This document shows, in pieces, positions 3,767 through 22,544 of a stretch of DNA of 64,000 bases. The notes beneath the pieces were generated by a model, which searched no databases, had not been told where the DNA came from, and saw only the letters and a list, made by a program, of their open reading frames with translations. How positions within the stretch are numbered: the first letter of the stretch is position 1; the number at the start of each line of letters is the position of its first letter. Source of the stretch: Candidatus Omnitrophota bacterium (GTDB taxonomy: Bacteria > Omnitrophota > Gorgyraeia > Gygaellales > Profunditerraquicolaceae); NCBI GenBank assembly GCA_022710715.1, contig JAKLGJ010000003.1, forward strand, positions 190,527 to 254,526. Reading direction: 5' to 3'. A program made the translations under genes and the position numbers.

Positions 3767-4639
3767 ATGTTCAATTATCTGATCTGGGGATTAGTCGCCG
3801 CGCTTTATTCGCCGATCATCTACCAGCTTTACCGCAACCGCTGGGAAATGATCGACTACACCCACGCCTACTTCATCCTGCCGGTCTCTCTGTGGCTGAT
3901 CTGGCGCAAGCGCAAAGAACTGCGCCAAGCCGCCCGCGCAACCGCCGCAAGCCGCGCCGCCGCCCACGCCCGCACCCCCAAAAAGGCCGCGCGCTCCGCA
4001 TCCTGGGGTCTGGCAGCCCTCATCCTGGGCGTCCTGTTCTTCATCTTCGGCTGGCGCTGGGATTATCTGTTCATCTCCACCTTCTCGCTCATCCTCACCG
4101 GCTCCGGCCTGGTGCTTTATCTCTACGGCTCCAAAACCGCCAAACTGCTCAAGTTCCCCATTCTCTATCTTTTGCTCATGGTTCCGCCGCCTCTGGGCAT
4201 CCTGGACTCCATCACCCTGCCCATGCGTTACGGCATCTCCGCGGTCGCCGAATTCATCCTGCGCTCATTCCACGTGCCGGTAGTCCGCGACGGCCTGCTG
4301 CTCAACGTCGGCGGACAGGAAATATTCATGGGCCAGCCCTGCTCGGGATTCCGCTCCCTGATCACCCTGATCTCCCTGGGCCTGGCGTACGTGTACATCT
4401 GCAAATCCACGCGACGCACCAAAGCCATACTCCTGGCCTCGATCGTACCCCTGGCTTTAACCGGCAACCTTATCCGCGTGCTTTCGCTGTGCCTGGTCAC
4501 CTACCACTTCGGCCCGGAGATCGGCCAGGGCTTCTTCCACGATTTCAGCGGCATCCTCATGTTCATCGTGACCATTTCCGGCCTCATCGGTCTGGAAGCC
4601 TATTTAAACCGCCCGCGGGTCACGGAGGAGGAACGCTAG
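3767..4639 (+). CDS. xrtA: Exosortase (EpsH/XrtA family), polytopic membrane transpeptidase.
   Basis: WEMIDYTHAYFILPVSLWLIWRKR N-terminal motif; CSG active-site region PCSGFRSLITLISLGLAYVY; 8 predicted TM helices; followed directly by EpsI. Start set to ATG 3767 rather than GTG 3731, which lies in REP copy D. Confidence 0.75.
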   Translation: MFNYLIWGLVAALYSPIIYQLYRNRWEMIDYTHAYFILPVSLWLIWRKRKELRQAARATAASRAAAHARTPKKAARSASWGLAALILGVLFFIFGWRWDYLFISTFSLILTGSGLVLYLYGSKTAKLLKFPILYLLLMVPPPLGILDSITLPMRYGISAVAEFILRSFHVPVVRDGLLLNVGGQEIFMGQPCSGFRSLITLISLGLAYVYICKSTRRTKAILLASIVPLALTGNLIRVLSLCLVTYHFGPEIGQGFFHDFSGILMFIVTISGLIGLEAYLNRPRVTEEER

Positions 4640-5320
4640 ATGAAAAAAGCCGCCCCTGCCCGCGCCGCCGCCCCCGCCGCGCCCTTCAACCCCAGATACC
4701 TTATCGCCGCCATCCTCATCTGCGCGGCTATCGCAATCAGCTTCGCCATACCTAAACCCAAATACCAAAGCCTCAACGTCCTTAAACAGATCTCCATCCC
4801 GGTAAACTTCGGAGACTGGAAGGGCAACGACATCGGTCAGCAGCTCGACCTCAACGACGACCGCTACCGCTTCATCTCGGACATCTTCGCGCGCACCTAC
4901 ACCCGCGCAGACGGCGCGCAGCTCATGTTGCTGATCCTCGACGCAGGCAACTTCCACAATCCCAAAGTCTGCTTCGGCTCTTCCGGCTACAAAATCCGCG
5001 AGCTTCCCGACACCCGGATCAACGCCGGCAAACGCTCTTTTGAAACCACCACCCTGCTGATGACCAAAGATCCGGAATCCACCATGCTCATCTACTGGCT
5101 GTGCATCGATAAGAAAATAACTTCCTGGGCCGGCCAAAAAACCAAAGAACTCTGGTTCTCGCTCTTCAACAAAAAGAAAGCCGGACTCATGGTCCGGCTC
5201 GACGTTCCTGCTCATCCTCAAGCGCCCGAAGCCTCCGCGGCTTTAGCGCAGCAATTCGTTACTGAACTATCAACTCACCTTTCTGAAAAGGACCTGACTC
5301 TCATATTCGGCGCCCAGTAA
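4640..5320 (+). CDS. epsI: EpsI-family exosortase-associated protein.
   Basis: Unfused partner directly after the exosortase (stop/start overlap TAGATG); single N-terminal TM helix then a soluble domain, the EpsI architecture. Confidence 0.6.
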   Translation: MKKAAPARAAAPAAPFNPRYLIAAILICAAIAISFAIPKPKYQSLNVLKQISIPVNFGDWKGNDIGQQLDLNDDRYRFISDIFARTYTRADGAQLMLLILDAGNFHNPKVCFGSSGYKIRELPDTRINAGKRSFETTTLLMTKDPESTMLIYWLCIDKKITSWAGQKTKELWFSLFNKKKAGLMVRLDVPAHPQAPEASAALAQQFVTELSTHLSEKDLTLIFGAQ

Positions 5321-5396
5321 AGGGGACAGGTCCACCCAAAACCCTCCGTCGACAAAAACAGCCAGATGTGTCCCCTTTCAAATTTGCTATGTCCCC
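5320..5396 (+). repeat. REP-like element copy E, abutting the epsI stop codon.
   Basis: Identity to copies A-C. Confidence 0.85.
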
Positions 5397-5425
5397 TTTT
5401 CCTTTTCCAACTCACTCAACTCAAC

Positions 5426-5941
5426 TCAATTCACATCAAACCTCGGTTTGGGCGGCTCATCCGGAGGCGGCTCAATGAGTTTTTTGATCGTTGTGAAGAT
5501 CACCTGAATATCAGTTTCATGCATTTGATACTTCCGCTCTAATTCTTCAATTTTCTCCGATAACTCTTTGTGCGTTAACAACAGTTCTCGCAGCTTCACA
5601 AATGCCCGCATAATTGCTATATTTACCTGGACTGCACGTTCTGAACGCAGCACACTCGATAACATCGCCACACCTTCTTGAGTAAACACATACGGCAGGT
5701 ATCTGTGCCCACCCCAACTTGAGGTCACAAATTGTGACCTCAAGTCTACAACCTCTTCTCGGCTAAGTTGAAACATAAAATCTTCAGGAAACCTCTTAAG
5801 ATTCCTTCTAACGCCTTGAAGCAAAGCTTTCGTCTTCACACCATACAGCTCCGCCAAATCCCTATCCAGCATCACCTTCTTCCCTCGAATCAACAGAATC
5901 TTTGCAGCCACAACCTCCACCGAAATTTTCTCTTTTTTCAT
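5426..5941 (-). CDS. ORF6N-domain protein, paralog 2.
   Basis: [35 protein letters not shown]...[58 protein letters not shown] before ATG 5941. Confidence 0.7.
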
Positions 5942-15393: not shown

Positions 15394-16594
15394 GCAACCT
15401 CACTCCCACAAAAAGCTTAACCAATCGAATAAATTCTTTAACCACAACTTTACAAGACGGCGCACCCAAAACGGACATTCCTGTAACACCAGGGCAATTA
15501 CCAATCAAATTAGCATGTAAAGGATAACAAATTCGCTTGGTTCTGGTATTGATGGTAAAGGCATTCAGAATTGCTTGTAAGCGAAGGTTGTCAGCATGGA
15601 TTTTCTTCGCGTCCACTAAACCATCAACTATCTGCTTACCCTTATCTGAACGGATTATCATTACGTTTGTTCCAATTGTATCCCCTTTTTGCTCGGGTAA
15701 CCAAGCATCACCAAAGGAGATGTCCGAGAAATCGCCGAAGAAATCCTGACAACAATAGCAGGCTAAAGGAGTAAAATATCCGGATCCAAAACATGTTGCC
15801 CACGCATCAGTAGACAATTCACTGATTTCATGCTGATTGTCAACTTTAATCTTAGTTTTCCCGGGCCACCCATCTCCTCTCCATTGAAAATAAGTAACCT
15901 GTGAAGCACTCACTTTATGCTTTTTTAAATAGCGGCTCAAAGCTCTATAAGAAGGCGCTTGATTACAAAACAAAGCAAGAATTAAGACTATAGACTCTTT
16001 TAAAACTTTGTCATGCGACATTGCCTTACGCAATGCAATTGCATGACACGGTAAACATACGACAGCTACCTTACGAGGATTCCTTTTAAGTTCAATTATT
16101 GCTTTATCCAGCGACACAGGACAATACTTTGAACCTTTTGCATTAAAAATTTCCTCTTCGGTCGAAGCAATAAAAGCTTCCGCCCGGACCTCTCTTCCGT
16201 ATTTCAAGCGGGTAACGACCACACCATCAACAACTTTATTTCTTAACAATTCAATCGACATTGTCGTTACCAGCCCACCGGAAGAACAACTAAACCTCAA
16301 ATCACCATTACCAGAATAACCTTTATAAATAGCTTGGAAATTGCCTATTAAGGCATTTTCAGGAGCTTGACCAAAAATCGAAATATTAAGTTCTTTATGA
16401 TCAAAACCAAATCCCGGACAGACTTGCTGGCACTTGCCGCAAAATATACATTTCGTCGTATCTAAAACTGGATAATTAATGCCTTCGGAGGTAACACGAA
16501 TAGTAATTGCTTGTGTCGGACAAATACCCGCACATACTCCGCAGCCGCAACACATAGCTTTAGATAATCTATCAAAAACAGAATTGGTTTTCAT
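15386..16594 (-). CDS. Coenzyme F420 hydrogenase/dehydrogenase beta-subunit-like 2x[4Fe-4S] protein.
   Basis: CGCGVCAGICP and CIFCGKCQQVCP ferredoxin motifs plus a FrhB-like C-terminal domain. A common partner of pyruvyl transferases in CPS/EPS loci. Confidence 0.6.
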   Translation of the reverse strand: MKTNSVFDRLSKAMCCGCGVCAGICPTQAITIRVTSEGINYPVLDTTKCIFCGKCQQVCPGFGFDHKELNISIFGQAPENALIGNFQAIYKGYSGNGDLRFSCSSGGLVTTMSIELLRNKVVDGVVVTRLKYGREVRAEAFIASTEEEIFNAKGSKYCPVSLDKAIIELKRNPRKVAVVCLPCHAIALRKAMSHDKVLKESIVLILALFCNQAPSYRALSRYLKKHKVSASQVTYFQWRGDGWPGKTKIKVDNQHEISELSTDAWATCFGSGYFTPLACYCCQDFFGDFSDISFGDAWLPEQKGDTIGTNVMIIRSDKGKQIVDGLVDAKKIHADNLRLQAILNAFTINTRTKRICYPLHANLIGNCPGVTGMSVLGAPSCKVVVKEFIRLVKLFVGVRLHA

Positions 16595-17832
16595 GCAAAG
16601 GTAGAAAATGAGGACACATCATTCGCTATGTCCGTAGTCTTTAGAACTTTATGTTTGTAGACAACATAGTATGCTGAAACGACCCTAAAGACCCAGGATA
16701 CTAAAGCCGCAAGAGCTGCTCCAGCCAGCCCCCATAAAGGAATTAAGAAAAAATTTAAACAAAGATTAAAGAAAATTCCCAATATGCATGTCCCTAAAAA
16801 CAATTGCAGCAAGTTTTTCGGTAACCTTCCACCAATAATGCCAGCCGGAATCGCATATAAAATCCGAAAAAATCCTGCCGCAATAAAAAAGACTAACAAA
16901 TGGGCTGAATGGTCATATCGGCCTTTGAAAAACCAATGCAGCAATGGCTGACCGGCAAACAAATATCCAATACAAACTACTATGGCGAGTATTCCAGCTT
17001 TAATTGAATCATTTTTAATGGGACGAGAATTATCTTTTGCATAATGCGGCATCATCACAAACCATAAAGCGGTAGCAACTAACTCGAACCCTCGGGTTAC
17101 CGTTATAACCACTACATAATCAGCTAATTTCGAGAAACCAAGCATTTTCGAGATAAAAAATTGATCAACCTGAACCATTACGGTATACGAAAACGTAATA
17201 AAAAAAAGAACTATCCCCTCTTTTACAAATCTGGCGGAAACAGCTTTCTCTCCCGATGGCAAACGATGTGTTACTAGATTACCTAAAACAAAAGTACTAA
17301 AAAAGATCAAGGTATAAACAAAAATAAGTCCCCAAAAGCTAAAAATCTTAAAAACAAAACACATCATTGCTACGCAAACAGAGAAAAAAATAGAATTTGT
17401 TTTACTTAAAAGCATTGACGAAGAATACCTGTCTTGAGACCGTAACAATGCCGAGTAATACTCGGTCCCAACCGCTGCCACGACCGCAAAATAAGCAAAT
17501 AACATTTCCTTCTTTAAATGATACATAAGACCGACAATAATACAACCTACGGCTGCAAACAAAGATGAAAATAACAAGCACGATCGAATAAACTTTTTCC
17601 AGTCATATTCTTTAATGTTCTCTCTATTAAATACGCGTATTATTGCCATATTCTGACCGAATAGTAATAAAGATGATAACATAATAACAACGGTATTAAT
17701 AAATTTAAACCGCCCGAACAAATTCGGGGGCAATAAACGGCCCAGAATAACATTGGTCAACAGTTCAGCAATCGCTGCCACTCCTAATATAATAGACACT
17801 GAACCGACTTTTTGGATTAAACTTGATTTCAT
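16591..17832 (-). CDS. Wzx-type polysaccharide flippase (MOP superfamily).
   Basis: About 12 TM helices; overlaps the upstream gene by 4 nt. Confidence 0.65.
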   Translation of the reverse strand: MKSSLIQKVGSVSIILGVAAIAELLTNVILGRLLPPNLFGRFKFINTVVIMLSSLLLFGQNMAIIRVFNRENIKEYDWKKFIRSCLLFSSLFAAVGCIIVGLMYHLKKEMLFAYFAVVAAVGTEYYSALLRSQDRYSSSMLLSKTNSIFFSVCVAMMCFVFKIFSFWGLIFVYTLIFFSTFVLGNLVTHRLPSGEKAVSARFVKEGIVLFFITFSYTVMVQVDQFFISKMLGFSKLADYVVVITVTRGFELVATALWFVMMPHYAKDNSRPIKNDSIKAGILAIVVCIGYLFAGQPLLHWFFKGRYDHSAHLLVFFIAAGFFRILYAIPAGIIGGRLPKNLLQLFLGTCILGIFFNLCLNFFLIPLWGLAGAALAALVSWVFRVVSAYYVVYKHKVLKTTDIANDVSSFSTFA

Positions 17833-17850
17833 TGATTATACCCTTATTCC

Positions 17851-18336
17851 TTACTTTATTTCCTCAAACAACTCCCCATTATCATACTCCGCCGGAAGCA
17901 CCAGATGCGCTGGCTTGCCGAACAGGCAGTCGCCTTCCTTATAAAACCCTTCGGCGATGAGCTCGGAGCAGACAAACCGCCGCTTGCTGCTGAAGAGCCG
18001 GTGCAGCCCCTCCCCTATGCGCGTAAACAATAGCGACAGCGGGAACCAGAAGAACTGCAAAGTATCGTAAGGCAGGTTGTTCATGGTCGCCCACCAGAGC
18101 GCGACTTTGTAGCGCTGGCGCTCGGACTGGCCGCGGCGGCGCAGGTGCTTGATCTGTATGCCCTTATCCAGGTAGGACTGCTTTAGATTGACCAGGCGGG
18201 AGCGCGGGATGCCGGCTTCGATGCAGGTATAACCGCCTAAACAGCCCAGCACGTGAGTCCATTTGCTGCTGTCGCCATAGCCGGCCTGAACCTGCGTTTT
18301 CTCGATAAGCTGATTGTGTCCGGCGACCAGGATCAC
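17851..18336 (-). CDS. YiiX / peptidase C92 family (permuted papain-fold) protein; N-terminus appears disrupted.
   Basis: GDVILVAGHN...SSKWTHVLG and FVCSELIAEGF match YiiX GDLVF...SPWSHVG and YCSEFV. Only a GTG lying inside the conserved GDV motif is available as start. GC higher than the neighbouring island. Confidence 0.4.
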   Translation of the reverse strand: MILVAGHNQLIEKTQVQAGYGDSSKWTHVLGCLGGYTCIEAGIPRSRLVNLKQSYLDKGIQIKHLRRRGQSERQRYKVALWWATMNNLPYDTLQFFWFPLSLLFTRIGEGLHRLFSSKRRFVCSELIAEGFYKEGDCLFGKPAHLVLPAEYDNGELFEEIK

Positions 18337-18415: not shown

Positions 18416-19276
18416 CTAACGCACCAGCTTGAGCAGATAATCCTTATACCCGGCGTCCATATCCTGGGCCAGCTTTTCCAGCTGCTCCCGGTTGATGTAT
18501 TTCATCCGATAGGCGGTTTCTTCCAGGCAGCCGATCTTCAACCCCTGCCGCTCTTCGATCATCCAGATGAAACGCGATGCGTCGCCGATGGAATCGTAGG
18601 TGCCGGTGTCCAGCCAGGCGTAGCCGCGGTCAAGCAGGACGACTTTGAGCTTGTTCTGCTTGAGATAAGCGGTGTTGACGTCGGTGATCTCCAGTTCCCC
18701 TCTGGCCGAAGGCTTGAGGTTCTTGGCGATCTCGATGACCTGGTTGTCGAAGAAATACAACCCCGTCACCGCCCAGTTGGATTTGGGATGCCGGGGTTTT
18801 TCTTCCAGGGAAACCGCGTTGTTGTTTTCGTCGAATTCCACCACGCCGTAGCGTTCGGGGTCTTTGACCGGATAGGCGAAGACTACCGCGCCTTTGAGAT
18901 CGAGCATGGCGATCTTGAGATGCTCCACCAGGCCGTGGCCGTAGAAGATGTTGTCGCCGAAGATCAAACAGGTGTTATCCTTGCCGATGAATTTCTCGCC
19001 GATCAGGAAAGCTTCGGCGATGCCTTTGGGAACTTTCTGCTCGGCGTAGGTGATGTTGATCCCTAATTGCGAGCCGTCGCCGATCAGGGCGTTGAACTGC
19101 TCCTGCGCGCCGGGCGAGGTAATGATGAGGATATCCCGGATGCCGGAGAGCATCAAAGTAGACAGCGGATAATAGAACATCGGCTTGTCGTAAAGCGGCA
19201 GCAAAGGTTTGGAGATGATCTTGGTCACCGGGTGGAGCCGTTTGCCGCGGCCTGCGGCGAGGATTATGCCTTTCAT
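18416..19276 (-). CDS. rfbA: Glucose-1-phosphate thymidylyltransferase.
   Basis: MKGIILAAGRGKRLHPVT...KPLLP...YGVVEFD canonical motifs. Confidence 0.9.
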   Translation of the reverse strand: MKGIILAAGRGKRLHPVTKIISKPLLPLYDKPMFYYPLSTLMLSGIRDILIITSPGAQEQFNALIGDGSQLGINITYAEQKVPKGIAEAFLIGEKFIGKDNTCLIFGDNIFYGHGLVEHLKIAMLDLKGAVVFAYPVKDPERYGVVEFDENNNAVSLEEKPRHPKSNWAVTGLYFFDNQVIEIAKNLKPSARGELEITDVNTAYLKQNKLKVVLLDRGYAWLDTGTYDSIGDASRFIWMIEERQGLKIGCLEETAYRMKYINREQLEKLAQDMDAGYKDYLLKLVR

Positions 19277-19434
19277 ACGCGCGTCCTTTTTTGTGCGAGC
19301 ATCCTCTTCAGTGTCGATTTAGGCAAAGCTGCGTTGAATCTGCGCATTTCTTCCAGCCAGGCGAGCTTTTGGGCGGCAGGCACGCGCAGCCAGCGTTTCA
19401 TCTTCTCTTCTTCGGATTCCCAGCCGTAACTCAT
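19274..19434 (-). CDS. Small 53-aa ORF (MSYGWESEEEKMKRWLRVPAAQKLAWLEEMRRFNAALPKSTLKRMLAQKRTRV), translationally coupled on both sides.
   Basis: Not in the ORF track (under 60 aa). TAATG overlap with the upstream NTase stop and ATGA overlap with the rfbA start. Confidence 0.35.
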
Positions 19435-19931
19435 TATTTCTTCCCTTTCATGATTCTCTTGAGCTTCTTCAGTTGCAAGATGTCGAATGTATCTATCTGC
19501 CGGGCAGAAGCTCTTTTCATAGCGATAAGATCATCTATCCCCATCACCGGAAGCGCTAAGCCGGACACTTTTACCCGCCGGGCGCGCTTGAGCGCTTCGG
19601 CAAAAGGAACCGGCGAATCCACAATAATATCTATCTCTTTCAATTCGCCTGGTTGGTAGTAATTGATCGCCTTGAGATTCTTCTGTTTGATTAACGCGGC
19701 CAATGCCGCCGGATCCAGCGCTTTTATGTCGATCGGCTGCTTCAAGCGGTATCCCAGAGAACGTAAGATGCGGTCAGCTTCCCGCAGAGTCTGCGGATCG
19801 ATACCGATCAAAAGATCCAGATCAGCGGTTGCCCTGGACACACCCAACAAATTGAGCGCGATGCCGCCCACGATCACATAATCGAATTTCTCGCGCTGGA
19901 ATGCTTTGAAAACATCCTCATAAATGATCAT
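19434..19931 (-). CDS. Pol-beta-superfamily nucleotidyltransferase-fold protein.
   Basis: VIVGGIALNLLGVSRATADLDLLI matches hG[GS]-x9-13-DhD. Confidence 0.5.
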   Translation of the reverse strand: MIIYEDVFKAFQREKFDYVIVGGIALNLLGVSRATADLDLLIGIDPQTLREADRILRSLGYRLKQPIDIKALDPAALAALIKQKNLKAINYYQPGELKEIDIIVDSPVPFAEALKRARRVKVSGLALPVMGIDDLIAMKRASARQIDTFDILQLKKLKRIMKGKK

Positions 19932-19977
19932 ACGCCCTTGCCTTTTCCTTCAGCTTCCCTTGCTTACCTTGCGCCCC

Positions 19978-21561
19978 TCACACCCAGTTATAGATTGCCC
20001 TGGGGATGAAGAAGGTGCGGTTGTTCAAAATGATCCCCATGATGTTGGCTTTTTTCTCGGCCAGCGGGAAGAGCGCGTTGCGCACCACCTGCTTGCGGGT
20101 CTTGCCTTCGTCGACCACCAGCAGCACGCCGTCGACCTGACTGCACAGCAAAATGCTGTCGCGATGGGTCAGATCGGGCGCGGAGATAAGCACCAGATCG
20201 TAGCTGCGCACCACATCCGCCAGAAGGGTATTCATGCGGTTGGAGTCGAGCACGGTGACCGGGTTGAGCTCGGTCTTGCCCGCGGGAAGCAGCGCCAGGT
20301 TCTTAGAGATGGTCTGCACGGTCTTCTCAAAGGTGACTTTTTCCTCGATCACGTCGACCAGCCCCGGCGCGTTCTCCTTCTGCTTGTTCTCGAATTTCTT
20401 CAGGGTGAGCTGGCGGAAATTGGCGTCGACCACCAGGACTTTGAGCCCCCATTTCTCGGCGAGCGAACGGCCGAGGTTGACCACGATGTCGGCAGCGTCT
20501 TCGCCGTAGGCGGCGGTGGTGAAGAGCAGCGATTTGAGGTTCTTGTCCTTGGAGATGAGCAGGATCTGTTCGGCCAGGGTATCGAATGATCGGGACTTGC
20601 CTTTTTTAGGGATGAAACCCAGCGAGGGCAAAGCCAGGTAGCGTTCGACTTCCTGCGGCGATTTGAAGGTCTGGTCCATGTATTCGAACATGAACGCCAG
20701 CATGCCCCCCAGGAACAGGGACATGAAGATGGCCAGAATGATGATCAATCCGCCGGACGGACCCACGGGCCGCAAAGGCGGCAGGGCCTGTTCGATGACT
20801 TTGACGCTGGCCGGGCCGATAGCGTCGACGTCGTTAGGCAGAAGCTGGCCGCCGAAGAGCATTTTCTCTTTGGGCCGCTCTCTCTGCTCGATCTTGCTGA
20901 TGCTTTCCTGGATCTGGACTACGGTGGAATGTTTATCGCCGTATTTGGTCTGGAGCTCGGCCACCTGCTGTTCCAGGTCGAAAAGGATATACGCGCGGCT
21001 GACCACGTTGGCCACTGCCGCGGCGATCATCGGATCGTAATCGCGATATTTGATCAGGAAGAGATTGGTGTCGCGGATAGGCTCGATGTCGATGCGGGAT
21101 TTAAGCCGTTCCAGCGCGAGGAACGCCAGCTGGCGGCCTCTGGTCTGGTCGTCGAGGGCTTTGAGCTTGGCGGTGAGCATTTTGCGCTCGAGCTTCAGGA
21201 GGAGCGCTTTGAGCGGAGTTGCGGCTCTCTCTTCCACTTCCATGGGCAGGAAATTCTGCAGGGAGCGGAATTCGATGGTCCTGCGCAGCACCGGGAAGGA
21301 TTTGACGATTTCCGCCTGGGTCAGCGCCGCTTCCATGTTGCGGCTGCCCAAAAGCTCGCGATAGTAGGGCGATTCGACCTGTTTCTCGGCGGAGATGAGC
21401 ATCTTGACCTGGGCTTCGTATTCCGGGGTCCGCAGCATGTTGCCGATGATCACGGTGATCATCACGGTGATAAAACAGGTGATGATCACGGCTTTCTGGC
21501 GGAAAAGCACGCGCAGATAATCGCGCATGGTTGTTTCGGGTAATTGCTCGAGCTGTTCCAT
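19978..21561 (-). CDS. Polysaccharide chain-length determinant (Wzz N-domain) fused to a BY-kinase-like P-loop domain with a degenerate Walker A (TTAAYGEDAADIV).
   Basis: Two-TM Wzz topology with coiled coil; C-terminal domain has kinase-like DxD and hydrophobic strands but lacks GK[ST] and a C-terminal Tyr cluster. Confidence 0.6.
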   Translation of the reverse strand: MEQLEQLPETTMRDYLRVLFRQKAVIITCFITVMITVIIGNMLRTPEYEAQVKMLISAEKQVESPYYRELLGSRNMEAALTQAEIVKSFPVLRRTIEFRSLQNFLPMEVEERAATPLKALLLKLERKMLTAKLKALDDQTRGRQLAFLALERLKSRIDIEPIRDTNLFLIKYRDYDPMIAAAVANVVSRAYILFDLEQQVAELQTKYGDKHSTVVQIQESISKIEQRERPKEKMLFGGQLLPNDVDAIGPASVKVIEQALPPLRPVGPSGGLIIILAIFMSLFLGGMLAFMFEYMDQTFKSPQEVERYLALPSLGFIPKKGKSRSFDTLAEQILLISKDKNLKSLLFTTAAYGEDAADIVVNLGRSLAEKWGLKVLVVDANFRQLTLKKFENKQKENAPGLVDVIEEKVTFEKTVQTISKNLALLPAGKTELNPVTVLDSNRMNTLLADVVRSYDLVLISAPDLTHRDSILLCSQVDGVLLVVDEGKTRKQVVRNALFPLAEKKANIMGIILNNRTFFIPRAIYNWV

Positions 21562-22292: not shown

Positions 22293-22544
22293 TCAATTAG
22301 TCGCTACGCGATGCAGCAACTCTGAAATAAAAGTCTGGTATTTTACTCCCATTTTGCGCGCTTTTTCCTTGATGTTCCTCAAATCCTGGCTGTTAATGCG
22401 GACATTGAGGACCGCGTCTTTTTTTCTGGCGGCAAGAGATTGAGCGATCTGGTGAAACTCTTCCGGAGTTACGTTCACGAATTGATCATTGATCAAGGCT
22501 TCTTCGATCTCTTTTTCTTGTGCGGGCAGTTTAAGTCTTCTCAT
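22293..22544 (-). CDS. BrnA-like ribbon-helix-helix (CopG/COG3514) antitoxin-type regulator, orphan (no BrnT partner).
   Basis: LNVRINSQDLRNIKEKARKMGVKYQTFISELLHRV matches the BrnA core. Confidence 0.5.
   Translation of the reverse strand: MRRLKLPAQEKEIEEALINDQFVNVTPEEFHQIAQSLAARKKDAVLNVRINSQDLRNIKEKARKMGVKYQTFISELLHRVATN

Follow-up and report, generated by a model that had tools for sequence, protein, structure and literature searches.

The nucleotidyltransferase (NTase) toxins of the MenT/AbiEii kind are translation poisons that extend the 3' end of tRNA, and so far they have been characterised in Mycobacterium and Streptococcus only, where two types of antitoxin are known (PMC10435456, PMC11375011). 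Nucleotide addition to tRNA 3' ends has been described for MenT1, MenT3, MenT4 and AbiEii (PMC10435456, PMC7450476, bioRxiv 10.64898/2026.01.19.700257). In E. coli, MenT1 has no toxic effect (PMC10435456). MenA1 turns MenT1 off by way of a phosphoacceptor, T39 of the toxin (PMC11375011), and antitoxin-induced auto-phosphorylation is reported at the homologous S78 of MenT3 and T65 of AbiEii (PMC11375011; bioRxiv 10.64898/2026.01.19.700257). Here we describe a pair of overlapping genes, coding for an NTase of 165 aa and a basic protein of 53 aa, that lies between wzc and rfbA in an exopolysaccharide (EPS) operon of a Candidatus Omnitrophota bacterium (contig JAKLGJ010000003.1, positions 190,527 to 254,526; this whole stretch of 64,000 nucleotides is henceforth called the window, and coordinates in it are counted from its first letter). 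On balance, the pair is probably a toxin-antitoxin (TA) cassette of the MenT/AbiEii kind, made up of two genes, complete in itself and acquired by horizontal transfer, that has been inserted in the EPS operon.

The first gene of the pair (19434..19931, minus strand) encodes the NTase, a putative toxin that Pfam, a profile search of the PDB and the predicted fold all liken to MenT1 and AbiEii. The Pfam families that it matches are families of the AbiEii clan, namely DUF2204 (2.5e-7, 31.0 bits vs a gathering threshold of 20.3), DUF6036 (9e-6, 26.0 bits vs 23.6) and, marginally, AbiEii itself (PF08843; 7e-5, 23.3 bits vs a cut-off of 22.5), with a further match to NTP_transf_5 below the cut-off. 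No NCBIfam model matched, and the AbiEii models of PADLOC gave weak partial matches (E 0.002–0.025). The NTase has no fewer than 130 homologues, with lengths of about 165 aa, and a profile built from 30 of them had MenT1 (8AN4/8AN5/8RR5) as its best match in the PDB (E 3e-8, positions 7–158), LnuA and TM1012 being matched over the N-terminal NTase motif only (LnuA at positions 7–65, E 1e-3). The AlphaFold2 (AF2) model of the NTase, with a predicted local distance difference test score (pLDDT) of 94.8 and a predicted template modelling score (pTM) of 0.89, led to the same protein: the top four PDB matches in Foldseek were MenT1 chains, the first three with template modelling scores (TMq) of 0.70–0.71 and E-values of 2e-7 to 1e-6 and the fourth with 0.62 and 1.8e-6, followed by TM1012, LnuA and ANT(2'')-Ia (TM 0.55–0.59). 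The NTase is thus a member of the DUF1814 superfamily that passes every sequence, motif and fold test we ran, with MenT1 as its closest relative; at an identity of ~21% to MenT1 it is a compact and distant new member of a known superfamily. The preliminary description of this DNA, made from the letters alone, had wondered whether alignment might reveal a sugar-nucleotide or aminoglycoside NTase instead, and the best alignment is that to MenT1.

The active-site motifs point in the same direction. The GG-x13-DLD signature from which a pol-beta-superfamily NTase had been recognised at the outset is indeed present, as G22-G23, 13 residues and D37-L38-D39. The codons of G22-G23 (motif I; 19863..19868, minus strand) align with the GG of MenT1, and among 153 family members G22 is kept in all and G23 in 152. 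Motif II, R33-A-T35-A-D37-L-D39 (19815..19835, minus strand, read as AGG GCA ACC GCT GAT CTG GAT), holds two carboxylates and a Thr at the position of the T39 phosphoacceptor of MenT1; HMMER aligned this stretch with R-F-T39-R-D41-V-D43 of MenT1, for which the roles of the residues are taken from PMC10435456 and PMC11375011. Position 35 is T in 151 members and S in one, whereas D37 is kept in 151 and D39 in 152. The third carboxylate, D101 (19629..19631, minus strand), lies on a strand (residues 99–103) that aligns with the 'VVDLL' strand of MenT1 and is found in 153/153. Towards the C-terminus, K139...R144..D147..D150 (19482..19517, minus strand) corresponds to motifs III/IV, a Lys followed by R..D..D, which have been described as characteristic of DUF1814 proteins (PMC7450476); K139 is kept in 153/153 and R144, D147 and D150 in 152 each. 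The residues invariant across the family are G22, A25, G30, D101 and K139. The full set of corresponding residues (NTase/MenT1) in the HMMER alignment is T35/T39, D37/D41, D39/D43, K139/K137, R144/R146, D147/D149 and D150/D152, allowing for an offset of one residue between PDB and native numbering. The positions that have been mutated in MenT1 are T39, D41, K137 and D152, K137A and D152A being among the mutants made (PMC10435456), and every one of them is conserved in the NTase, including the Thr at the phosphoacceptor position (T35). Because its catalytic and motif residues are near-invariant over 153 members, the NTase looks catalytically competent from its sequence.

The second gene (19273..19434, minus strand) codes for the 53-aa protein, a putative antitoxin with three predicted helices and the founder-type member of an undescribed family. 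The two genes are joined by a TAATG (19432..19436, minus strand), in which the TAA stop of the NTase (19436..19434) and the ATG of the small open reading frame (ORF; 19434..19432) have one base in common, an arrangement that suggests translational coupling. At the other end, an ATGA (19273..19276, minus strand) overlaps the TGA of the small ORF (19275..19273) with the ATG of rfbA (19276..19274). Both junctions had been described beforehand and both can be read in the sequence; of the span then given to the feature, 19274–19931, the end at 19931 is right, but the start moves to 19273 once the stop codon is counted. As had been claimed, the small protein is basic, with an isoelectric point (pI) of 10.6 and 13 K+R against 6 D+E, and contains no histidine; the NTase is basic too (pI 9.75). 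It had also been called unannotated, and this needs correcting: the identical protein of 53 aa is on public record as 'hypothetical protein P5110_01260, Candidatus Omnitrophota bacterium'. Proteins identical to both members of the pair are encoded on a 1.62-Mb contig of a Candidatus Omnitrophota metagenome-assembled genome (MAG), under the names 'nucleotidyltransferase' and 'hypothetical protein'.

The remark that the small partner matches no obvious family was borne out on every side. Neither Pfam nor NCBIfam has a family for it, PADLOC returned nothing, a profile search found no sequence relative in the PDB and a search with the predicted structure found no fold relative. A search with the single sequence retrieved only the protein itself, and homologues emerged only through the ORFs adjoining NTase homologues and the profile that was built from them. 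This profile then recovered 641 proteins in a 90%-clustered collection and 196 cluster representatives among 1.84 billion, nearly all of them free-standing proteins of 40–90 aa. The AF2 model (pLDDT 79) has helices at residues 8–17, 20–36 and 39–52, and the family core reads W-E-[ST]-E-x-E-[RK]-L...[IV]-P-x-x-K-K-L-x-W-L-x-x-M-x-x-F and gives way to a basic tail, with W5, K23, W26 and L27 invariant in close members. The mismatch fractions at the three codon positions, 0.44 / 0.36 / 0.61 over 37 loci, indicate a translated gene under purifying selection, and even strongly diverged small ORFs retain their position and overlap (e.g. 'SGFEREHLR..ASVESKFHALTEM..F' in Peribacteria). The small ORF is a real gene, beyond chance. 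Searches of the literature on DUF6036, DUF2204, NTP_transf_5 and NetFlax plus nucleotidyltransferase gave no description of the pair, and the small-protein family is new in the sense of being absent from Pfam, NCBIfam, the PDB and the searchable literature. One of its members, P0376 (112 aa), carries the domain in two tandem copies.

To follow the linkage of the two genes we used 80 loci of GTDB species representatives in which an NTase homologue is encoded. Used as a tblastn query, the 53-aa protein gave a match directly after the NTase in about 45 of the 80, a profile hidden Markov model (HMM) detected an adjoining small ORF in about 70, and iterating the HMM on the adjacent ORFs raised the number to 76 (E <= 1e-3), with the small ORF downstream of the NTase in 74 loci and upstream in two. 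A 4-nt ATGA overlap is the usual junction between the two genes (40/76 loci), and the partner ORF has 47–74 aa across the related loci. Leaving out one locus that ends at a contig edge (L050), an intact small ORF stands by the NTase in 77 of the 79 assessable loci, among which we count L028, where it lies 84 nt downstream, so that lack of conservation in homologous loci, the other doubt raised about the small ORF, does not apply. The two exceptions are L075, with a frameshifted small ORF, and L031, in which the small domain is fused to a HAD-like ORF. The pairwise divergences of the NTase and of the small protein are tightly correlated (r = 0.88), which argues that the two genes travel as a unit. 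Their hosts include Omnitrophota, Planctomycetota (Scalindua, Brocadia, Brocadiia), Nitrospinota, Nitrospirota, Margulisiibacteriota, Peribacteria/Peregrinibacteria, Elusimicrobia, Acidobacteriota, Myxococcota and Actinomycetota among the bacteria, and archaea such as Hadarchaeum and Pyrohabitans.

Some arrangements depart from the common one. Two Scalindua loci (L048, 3799–4486, and L070, 3838–4498) have the small ORF upstream of the NTase with an overlap of about 29–35 nt, which is the order of MenA1-MenT1. L015 (2430–3874) carries two tandem cassettes of opposite gene order, the first consisting of a 56-aa small ORF ('...SISERLAWAFAQHRF...') followed by a divergent NTase with VGAAA in place of VGG, and the second of a canonical NTase with its small ORF after it. 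Two copies (L043 and L060) are present in one MAG. The fusion in L031 (Candidatus Brocadia, 4476–5558) makes the small domain the N-terminus of an ORF of 360 aa whose remainder resembles a HAD hydrolase (DxDxT motif), and is either genuine or due to a lost stop codon. Longer NTase homologues, which we had considered as natural fusions of NTase and small protein, turned out to be mis-called N-terminal extensions.

Set against the described systems, the locus comes closest to MenA1-MenT1 of Mycobacterium tuberculosis (Rv0078B-Rv0078A; 8AN4, 8AN5, 8RR5). In both, a short single-domain NTase of the DUF1814 superfamily, with GG, T-x-D-x-D, K and R..D..D all conserved and with MenT1 as the best match in sequence and fold, is accompanied by a very short helical partner without a recognisable DNA-binding domain (68 aa in MenA1, PMC10435456; 53 aa here). 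However, MenT1 has 196 aa against 165 and the identity is low, the best Pfam matches of our NTase are DUF2204 and DUF6036 with AbiEii only marginal, MenA1 has two helices against the three predicted here and no similarity to the small protein in sequence or fold, and its gene lies upstream of the toxin gene whereas the partner lies downstream in 74 of 76 loci here. No gene of the MenA1 family, the antitoxin of MenAT1, stands upstream of the NTase at this locus. AbiEi-AbiEii (Streptococcus agalactiae/Lactococcus) and MenA3-MenT3 have the NTase superfamily and the motif set in common with our pair, and their phosphoacceptors T65 (AbiEii) and S78 (MenT3) occupy the position homologous to T35 (PMC11375011; bioRxiv 10.64898/2026.01.19.700257), but these toxins have about 250–300 aa with larger C-terminal domains, and AbiEi and MenA3 are COG5340 winged-helix antitoxins of about 200 aa encoded upstream. 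PADLOC defines AbiE by an AbiEi/COG5340 gene next to AbiEii; the neighbours here are wzc upstream and the 53-aa ORF downstream, and there is no AbiEi-like gene. Judged by the antitoxin, therefore, the pair belongs neither to MenAT1 nor to AbiE as systems.

With MntA-HepT (MNT/HEPN, type VII) the pair has a gene order in common, a minimal pol-beta-fold NTase gene first and an overlapping partner second, but there the NTase is an antitoxin of the NTP_transf_2 family that is paired with a HEPN RNase bearing an Rx4-6H motif, and none of these is found here. Of minimal NTases of this sort the preliminary description had said that they are often part of MNT/HEPN or AbiE-type modules. The AbiE half of this suggestion holds, through the AbiEii-clan Pfam families and MenT1 as the best match, while the MNT/HEPN half can be rejected because the Pfam search gave no NTP_transf_2/MNT match and a 53-aa partner without histidine can have no Rx4-6H motif. 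In the AbiE branch, then, the possible TA-like pair of that description gains support, the one protein being the presumed poison and the other the presumed antidote. TM1012, the DUF2204/DUF6036 NTases, LnuA and ANT(2'')-Ia are of the same compact NTase fold group, and DUF2204 and DUF6036 are the best-scoring Pfam families, but these proteins are uncharacterised or modify small molecules, their match in the C-terminal motifs is weaker than that of MenT1, and to our knowledge none has a coupled small partner.

Which of the two genes might be the toxin can be judged from their decay. From the side of the small ORF we took ten proteins, selected solely for their long contigs. Seven of these have an intact NTase of 165–175 aa upstream, and the other three combine an intact small ORF with a disrupted NTase: in L161 a deletion leaves the first ~17 NTase codons, fused up to the start of the small ORF; in L170 the NTase is frameshifted within the R-x-T-x-D motif; and in L171 it has a nonsense codon at position 93. 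A further locus outside the ten, P0312, is a truncation-fusion in which a complete small protein follows NTase residues 1–70 in the same frame. Of the 79 loci selected by the NTase, one showed the opposite, a partner broken beside an intact NTase (the frameshift in L075). The loci are few and MAG errors may explain the two point lesions (L170, L171), but the asymmetry, with the NTase lost and the small ORF kept, has the direction expected of TA modules, in which orphan antitoxins are tolerated and orphan toxins rare; it would fit the NTase as toxin and the small protein as antitoxin, and speak against the reverse polarity.

The surroundings of the pair are those of a cassette. When the flanking ORFs of the 80 loci were clustered, the NTase was the sole gene family common to all. 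The recurrent contexts are unrelated strings of housekeeping genes, into which the pair is inserted co-directionally (ispE-spoVG-[pair]-glmU-prs-L25, hutU-hutI-[pair]-lptE-porV and smpB-[pair]), and other copies are stand-alone bicistrons between genes of the opposite strand. The G+C content at third codon positions (GC3) is 0.60 and 0.63 in the pair vs 0.80 in wzc and 0.79 in rfbA. In the 80 metagenomic loci with the most similar rfbA (59–67% identity) neither gene occurs within 4 kb; as the nearest of these is only 67% identical, a comparison with an empty site in close relatives of this EPS locus failed. We found no direct or inverted repeats flanking the pair and no Rfam family in the window, and neither the spacer of 46 nt between the wzc stop and the NTase start (19932..19977, minus strand; purine-rich 5' of the ATG, GGAAAAGGCAAGGGCGT) nor the sequence bracketing the NTase and the small ORF contains a promoter or terminator consensus. 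Transcripts of the EPS operon probably run on through the pair. Genomic hallmarks of TA systems are present, namely gene overlaps of 1–4 nt, variable context, patchy and multi-copy distribution and foreign composition. The pair is an autonomous cassette, a passenger in the EPS operon and not an EPS gene, and that it lies between wzc and rfbA is due to chance insertion and not to a functional link.

Individual neighbourhoods of the relatives deserve mention. A link to sugar-nucleotide genes, suggested by a GlmU cluster downstream in five related loci, was rejected when this proved to be the conserved spoVG-glmU-prs string with the pair inserted. In L172 (984–2449) the cassette lies directly upstream of a Bac_transf sugar transferase gene and an ABC exporter gene, a second polysaccharide-type context that is probably coincidental. 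In two contigs of Omnitrophota type (L167, 1668–3162, and L174, 1680–3162) it adjoins giant genes, with products of 7,396 and 12,796 residues.

If the pair is a TA cassette of the MenT/AbiEii kind, the NTase would, by homology, add nucleotides to the 3'-CCA ends of tRNA and stall translation. The small protein, being translationally coupled, would be made whenever the NTase is made, and would bind across the active-site face of the NTase, as the short helical MenA1 does to MenT1, neutralising it by blocking the active site, by induced self-phosphorylation of Thr35 (type VII, as in MenA1-MenT1) or by both. The 53-aa protein is most likely the antidote of the NTase, and, Thr35 being all but invariant, this protein probably induces self-phosphorylation of the residue as well. 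Expression of the cassette probably follows that of the EPS operon, because of the apparent read-through and the stop/start chaining to rfbA. It is also possible, if rather doubtful, that the 53-aa protein founds a structurally unrelated class of antitoxins for MenT/AbiEii-type NTases that force the toxin into Thr35 self-phosphorylation like MenA1, MenA3 and AbiEi do. Were this true, the auto-phosphorylation switch would be ancient, intrinsic to the fold and used convergently by unrelated partners, and it would reach beyond pathogens to Omnitrophota, candidate phyla radiation (CPR) bacteria, anammox Planctomycetota and archaea. In this reading the cassette, through its translational chaining to rfbA, could also link expression of the capsule operon to a growth brake.

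Several observations weigh against a TA cassette. No similarity of the small protein to MenA1, AbiEi or any other known antitoxin could be detected, and in most loci its ORF comes after the NTase, whereas menA1-menT1 and abiEi-abiEii have the opposite order. Many antitoxins are acidic, but here both proteins are basic. Identity to MenT1 is only ~21%, in a fold group that also holds the non-toxin enzymes LnuA, ANT(2'')-Ia and TM1012. Sequenced phages and IMG/VR contigs yielded no copies and plasmids only one weak match (Nostoc, 26% identity), and in the window and several relatives the pair sits co-directionally inside housekeeping operons without a promoter of its own. The decay asymmetry, finally, comes from few loci, and the frameshift and nonsense lesions of L170 and L171 could be assembly errors of the MAGs.

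Much of this would suit a different role, in which the NTase is a non-toxic enzyme that modifies RNA or protein (e.g. in RNA 3'-end repair or tagging) and the small protein its obligatory specificity or regulatory subunit, the two forming a housekeeping accessory and not an addiction or defence module. Such an accessory could well be co-directional in core operons without its own promoter, be kept in very small genomes like those of Omnitrophota and Peribacteria, be missing from phage, plasmid and viral collections save for one weak plasmid match, and consist of two basic proteins. We nevertheless regard it as unlikely: no neighbour or pathway is conserved with the pair, its composition is foreign vs the flanks, it occurs patchily, twice in one MAG and as a tandem pair in L015, the characterised proteins closest to the NTase are toxins without exception, and one would not expect an enzyme with a mere cofactor to be inactivated repeatedly while the partner survives. 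The same losses bear on a scheme of the MNT/HEPN type with reversed polarity, where the NTase would be an antitoxin modifying or sequestering the partner and the basic 53-aa protein the toxin, since a locus with a destroyed NTase and an intact small ORF would then be lethal. The NTase-first order is that of mntA-hepT, and a protein so highly basic could bind nucleic acid, but with no NTP_transf_2/MNT match and a partner that falls short of half a HEPN domain in size and has no histidine for Rx4-6H, this scheme is very improbable.

The fold matches raise the further question of a small-molecule, antibiotic-type NTase like LnuA or ANT(2'')-Ia, with the small ORF as an unrelated or regulatory neighbour. 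LnuA, ANT(2'')-Ia and TM1012 are indeed among these matches (TM 0.55–0.59), many homologues have weak precomputed matches to PF10706 (Aminoglyc_resit), and LnuA matches the N-terminal 60 residues of the profile at E 1e-3. MenT1, however, gives the better sequence alignment (full length, E 3e-8) and the better fold match (TM 0.71), and with it the NTase has in common the C-terminal K..R..D..D and the Thr at the phosphoacceptor position, where LnuA has His; antibiotic NTases are, moreover, stand-alone genes, whereas a coupled partner is nearly universal here, and we hold this alternative to be quite improbable. Hardly credible, too, is a pair dedicated to the EPS pathway, be it in Wzc/RfbA regulation or in a nucleotide-sugar step. 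Its appeal lies in the site between wzc and rfbA, the start/stop overlap onto rfbA and the few relatives adjoining sugar-nucleotide or sugar-transferase genes (glmU; Bac_transf), but where glmU is the neighbour, the pair has been inserted into the spoVG-glmU-prs string, copies elsewhere lie by hut genes, smpB, PEPCK and giant ORFs, the pair is in none of the 80 closest rfbA loci, and its GC3 is strongly unlike that of the EPS genes.

A TA cassette of this make-up would add to the MenT/AbiEii toxins a compact branch of 165 aa with every functional residue kept, together with a partner family absent from the databases and literature searched, and its distribution would have its centre in uncultured lineages with small genomes and in some archaea. 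As new TA pairs are common, the finding is not surprising in principle, but the system is clean, widespread and minimal. With 165 + 53 aa it would be a minimal system for asking whether antitoxin-induced self-phosphorylation is universal for the fold, and it is of direct relevance to a recent proposal, that MenT/AbiEii toxins are universally controlled by auto-phosphorylation. For annotation, it would account for hundreds of pairs of 'hypothetical protein' and 'nucleotidyltransferase' in MAGs.

All genes in this part of the window are on the minus strand, in the order wzc, 46-nt spacer, NTase, 53-aa ORF and rfbA as read directly from the sequence, and the flanking genes are what they had been taken for. 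The gene upstream (19978–21561, minus strand) encodes a chain-length determinant/tyrosine autokinase resembling Wzc (sub-threshold matches to TIGR01007 and TIGR01005; marginal ones to the Pfam domains Wzz, GNVR and AAA_31), and the gene downstream is rfbA (18416–19276, minus strand; TIGR01207, 2e-131). The wider locus is an exopolysaccharide cluster with a Bac_transf sugar transferase, a Wza-like exporter, Wzc, RfbA, a Wzx-type flippase and a pyruvyl transferase. An ORF of 83 aa (22293–22544, minus strand), located between the genes of the Bac_transf protein and the Wza-like exporter, has a likeness to CopG/BrnA-type antitoxins (PF12441, 26.6 bits vs a cut-off of 28 bits); its GC (0.44) and GC3 (0.50) are low vs its neighbours, and the gap of 230 nt upstream holds no toxin-sized ORF, only one of 21 aa. 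This ORF possibly encodes an orphan antitoxin and could represent a second foreign insertion into this EPS operon. An ORF of 161 aa (17851–18336, minus strand), situated between rfbA and the flippase gene, is without Pfam match and of host-like composition (GC 0.57, GC3 0.76). Just downstream of it, from ~17850 and below (e.g. 16591–17832), GC falls sharply from about 57% to 35–40%, and the Wzx-type flippase gene has a GC of 0.37 and a GC3 of 0.35; this sharp drop and the low-GC flippase gene make the EPS locus a compositional mosaic.

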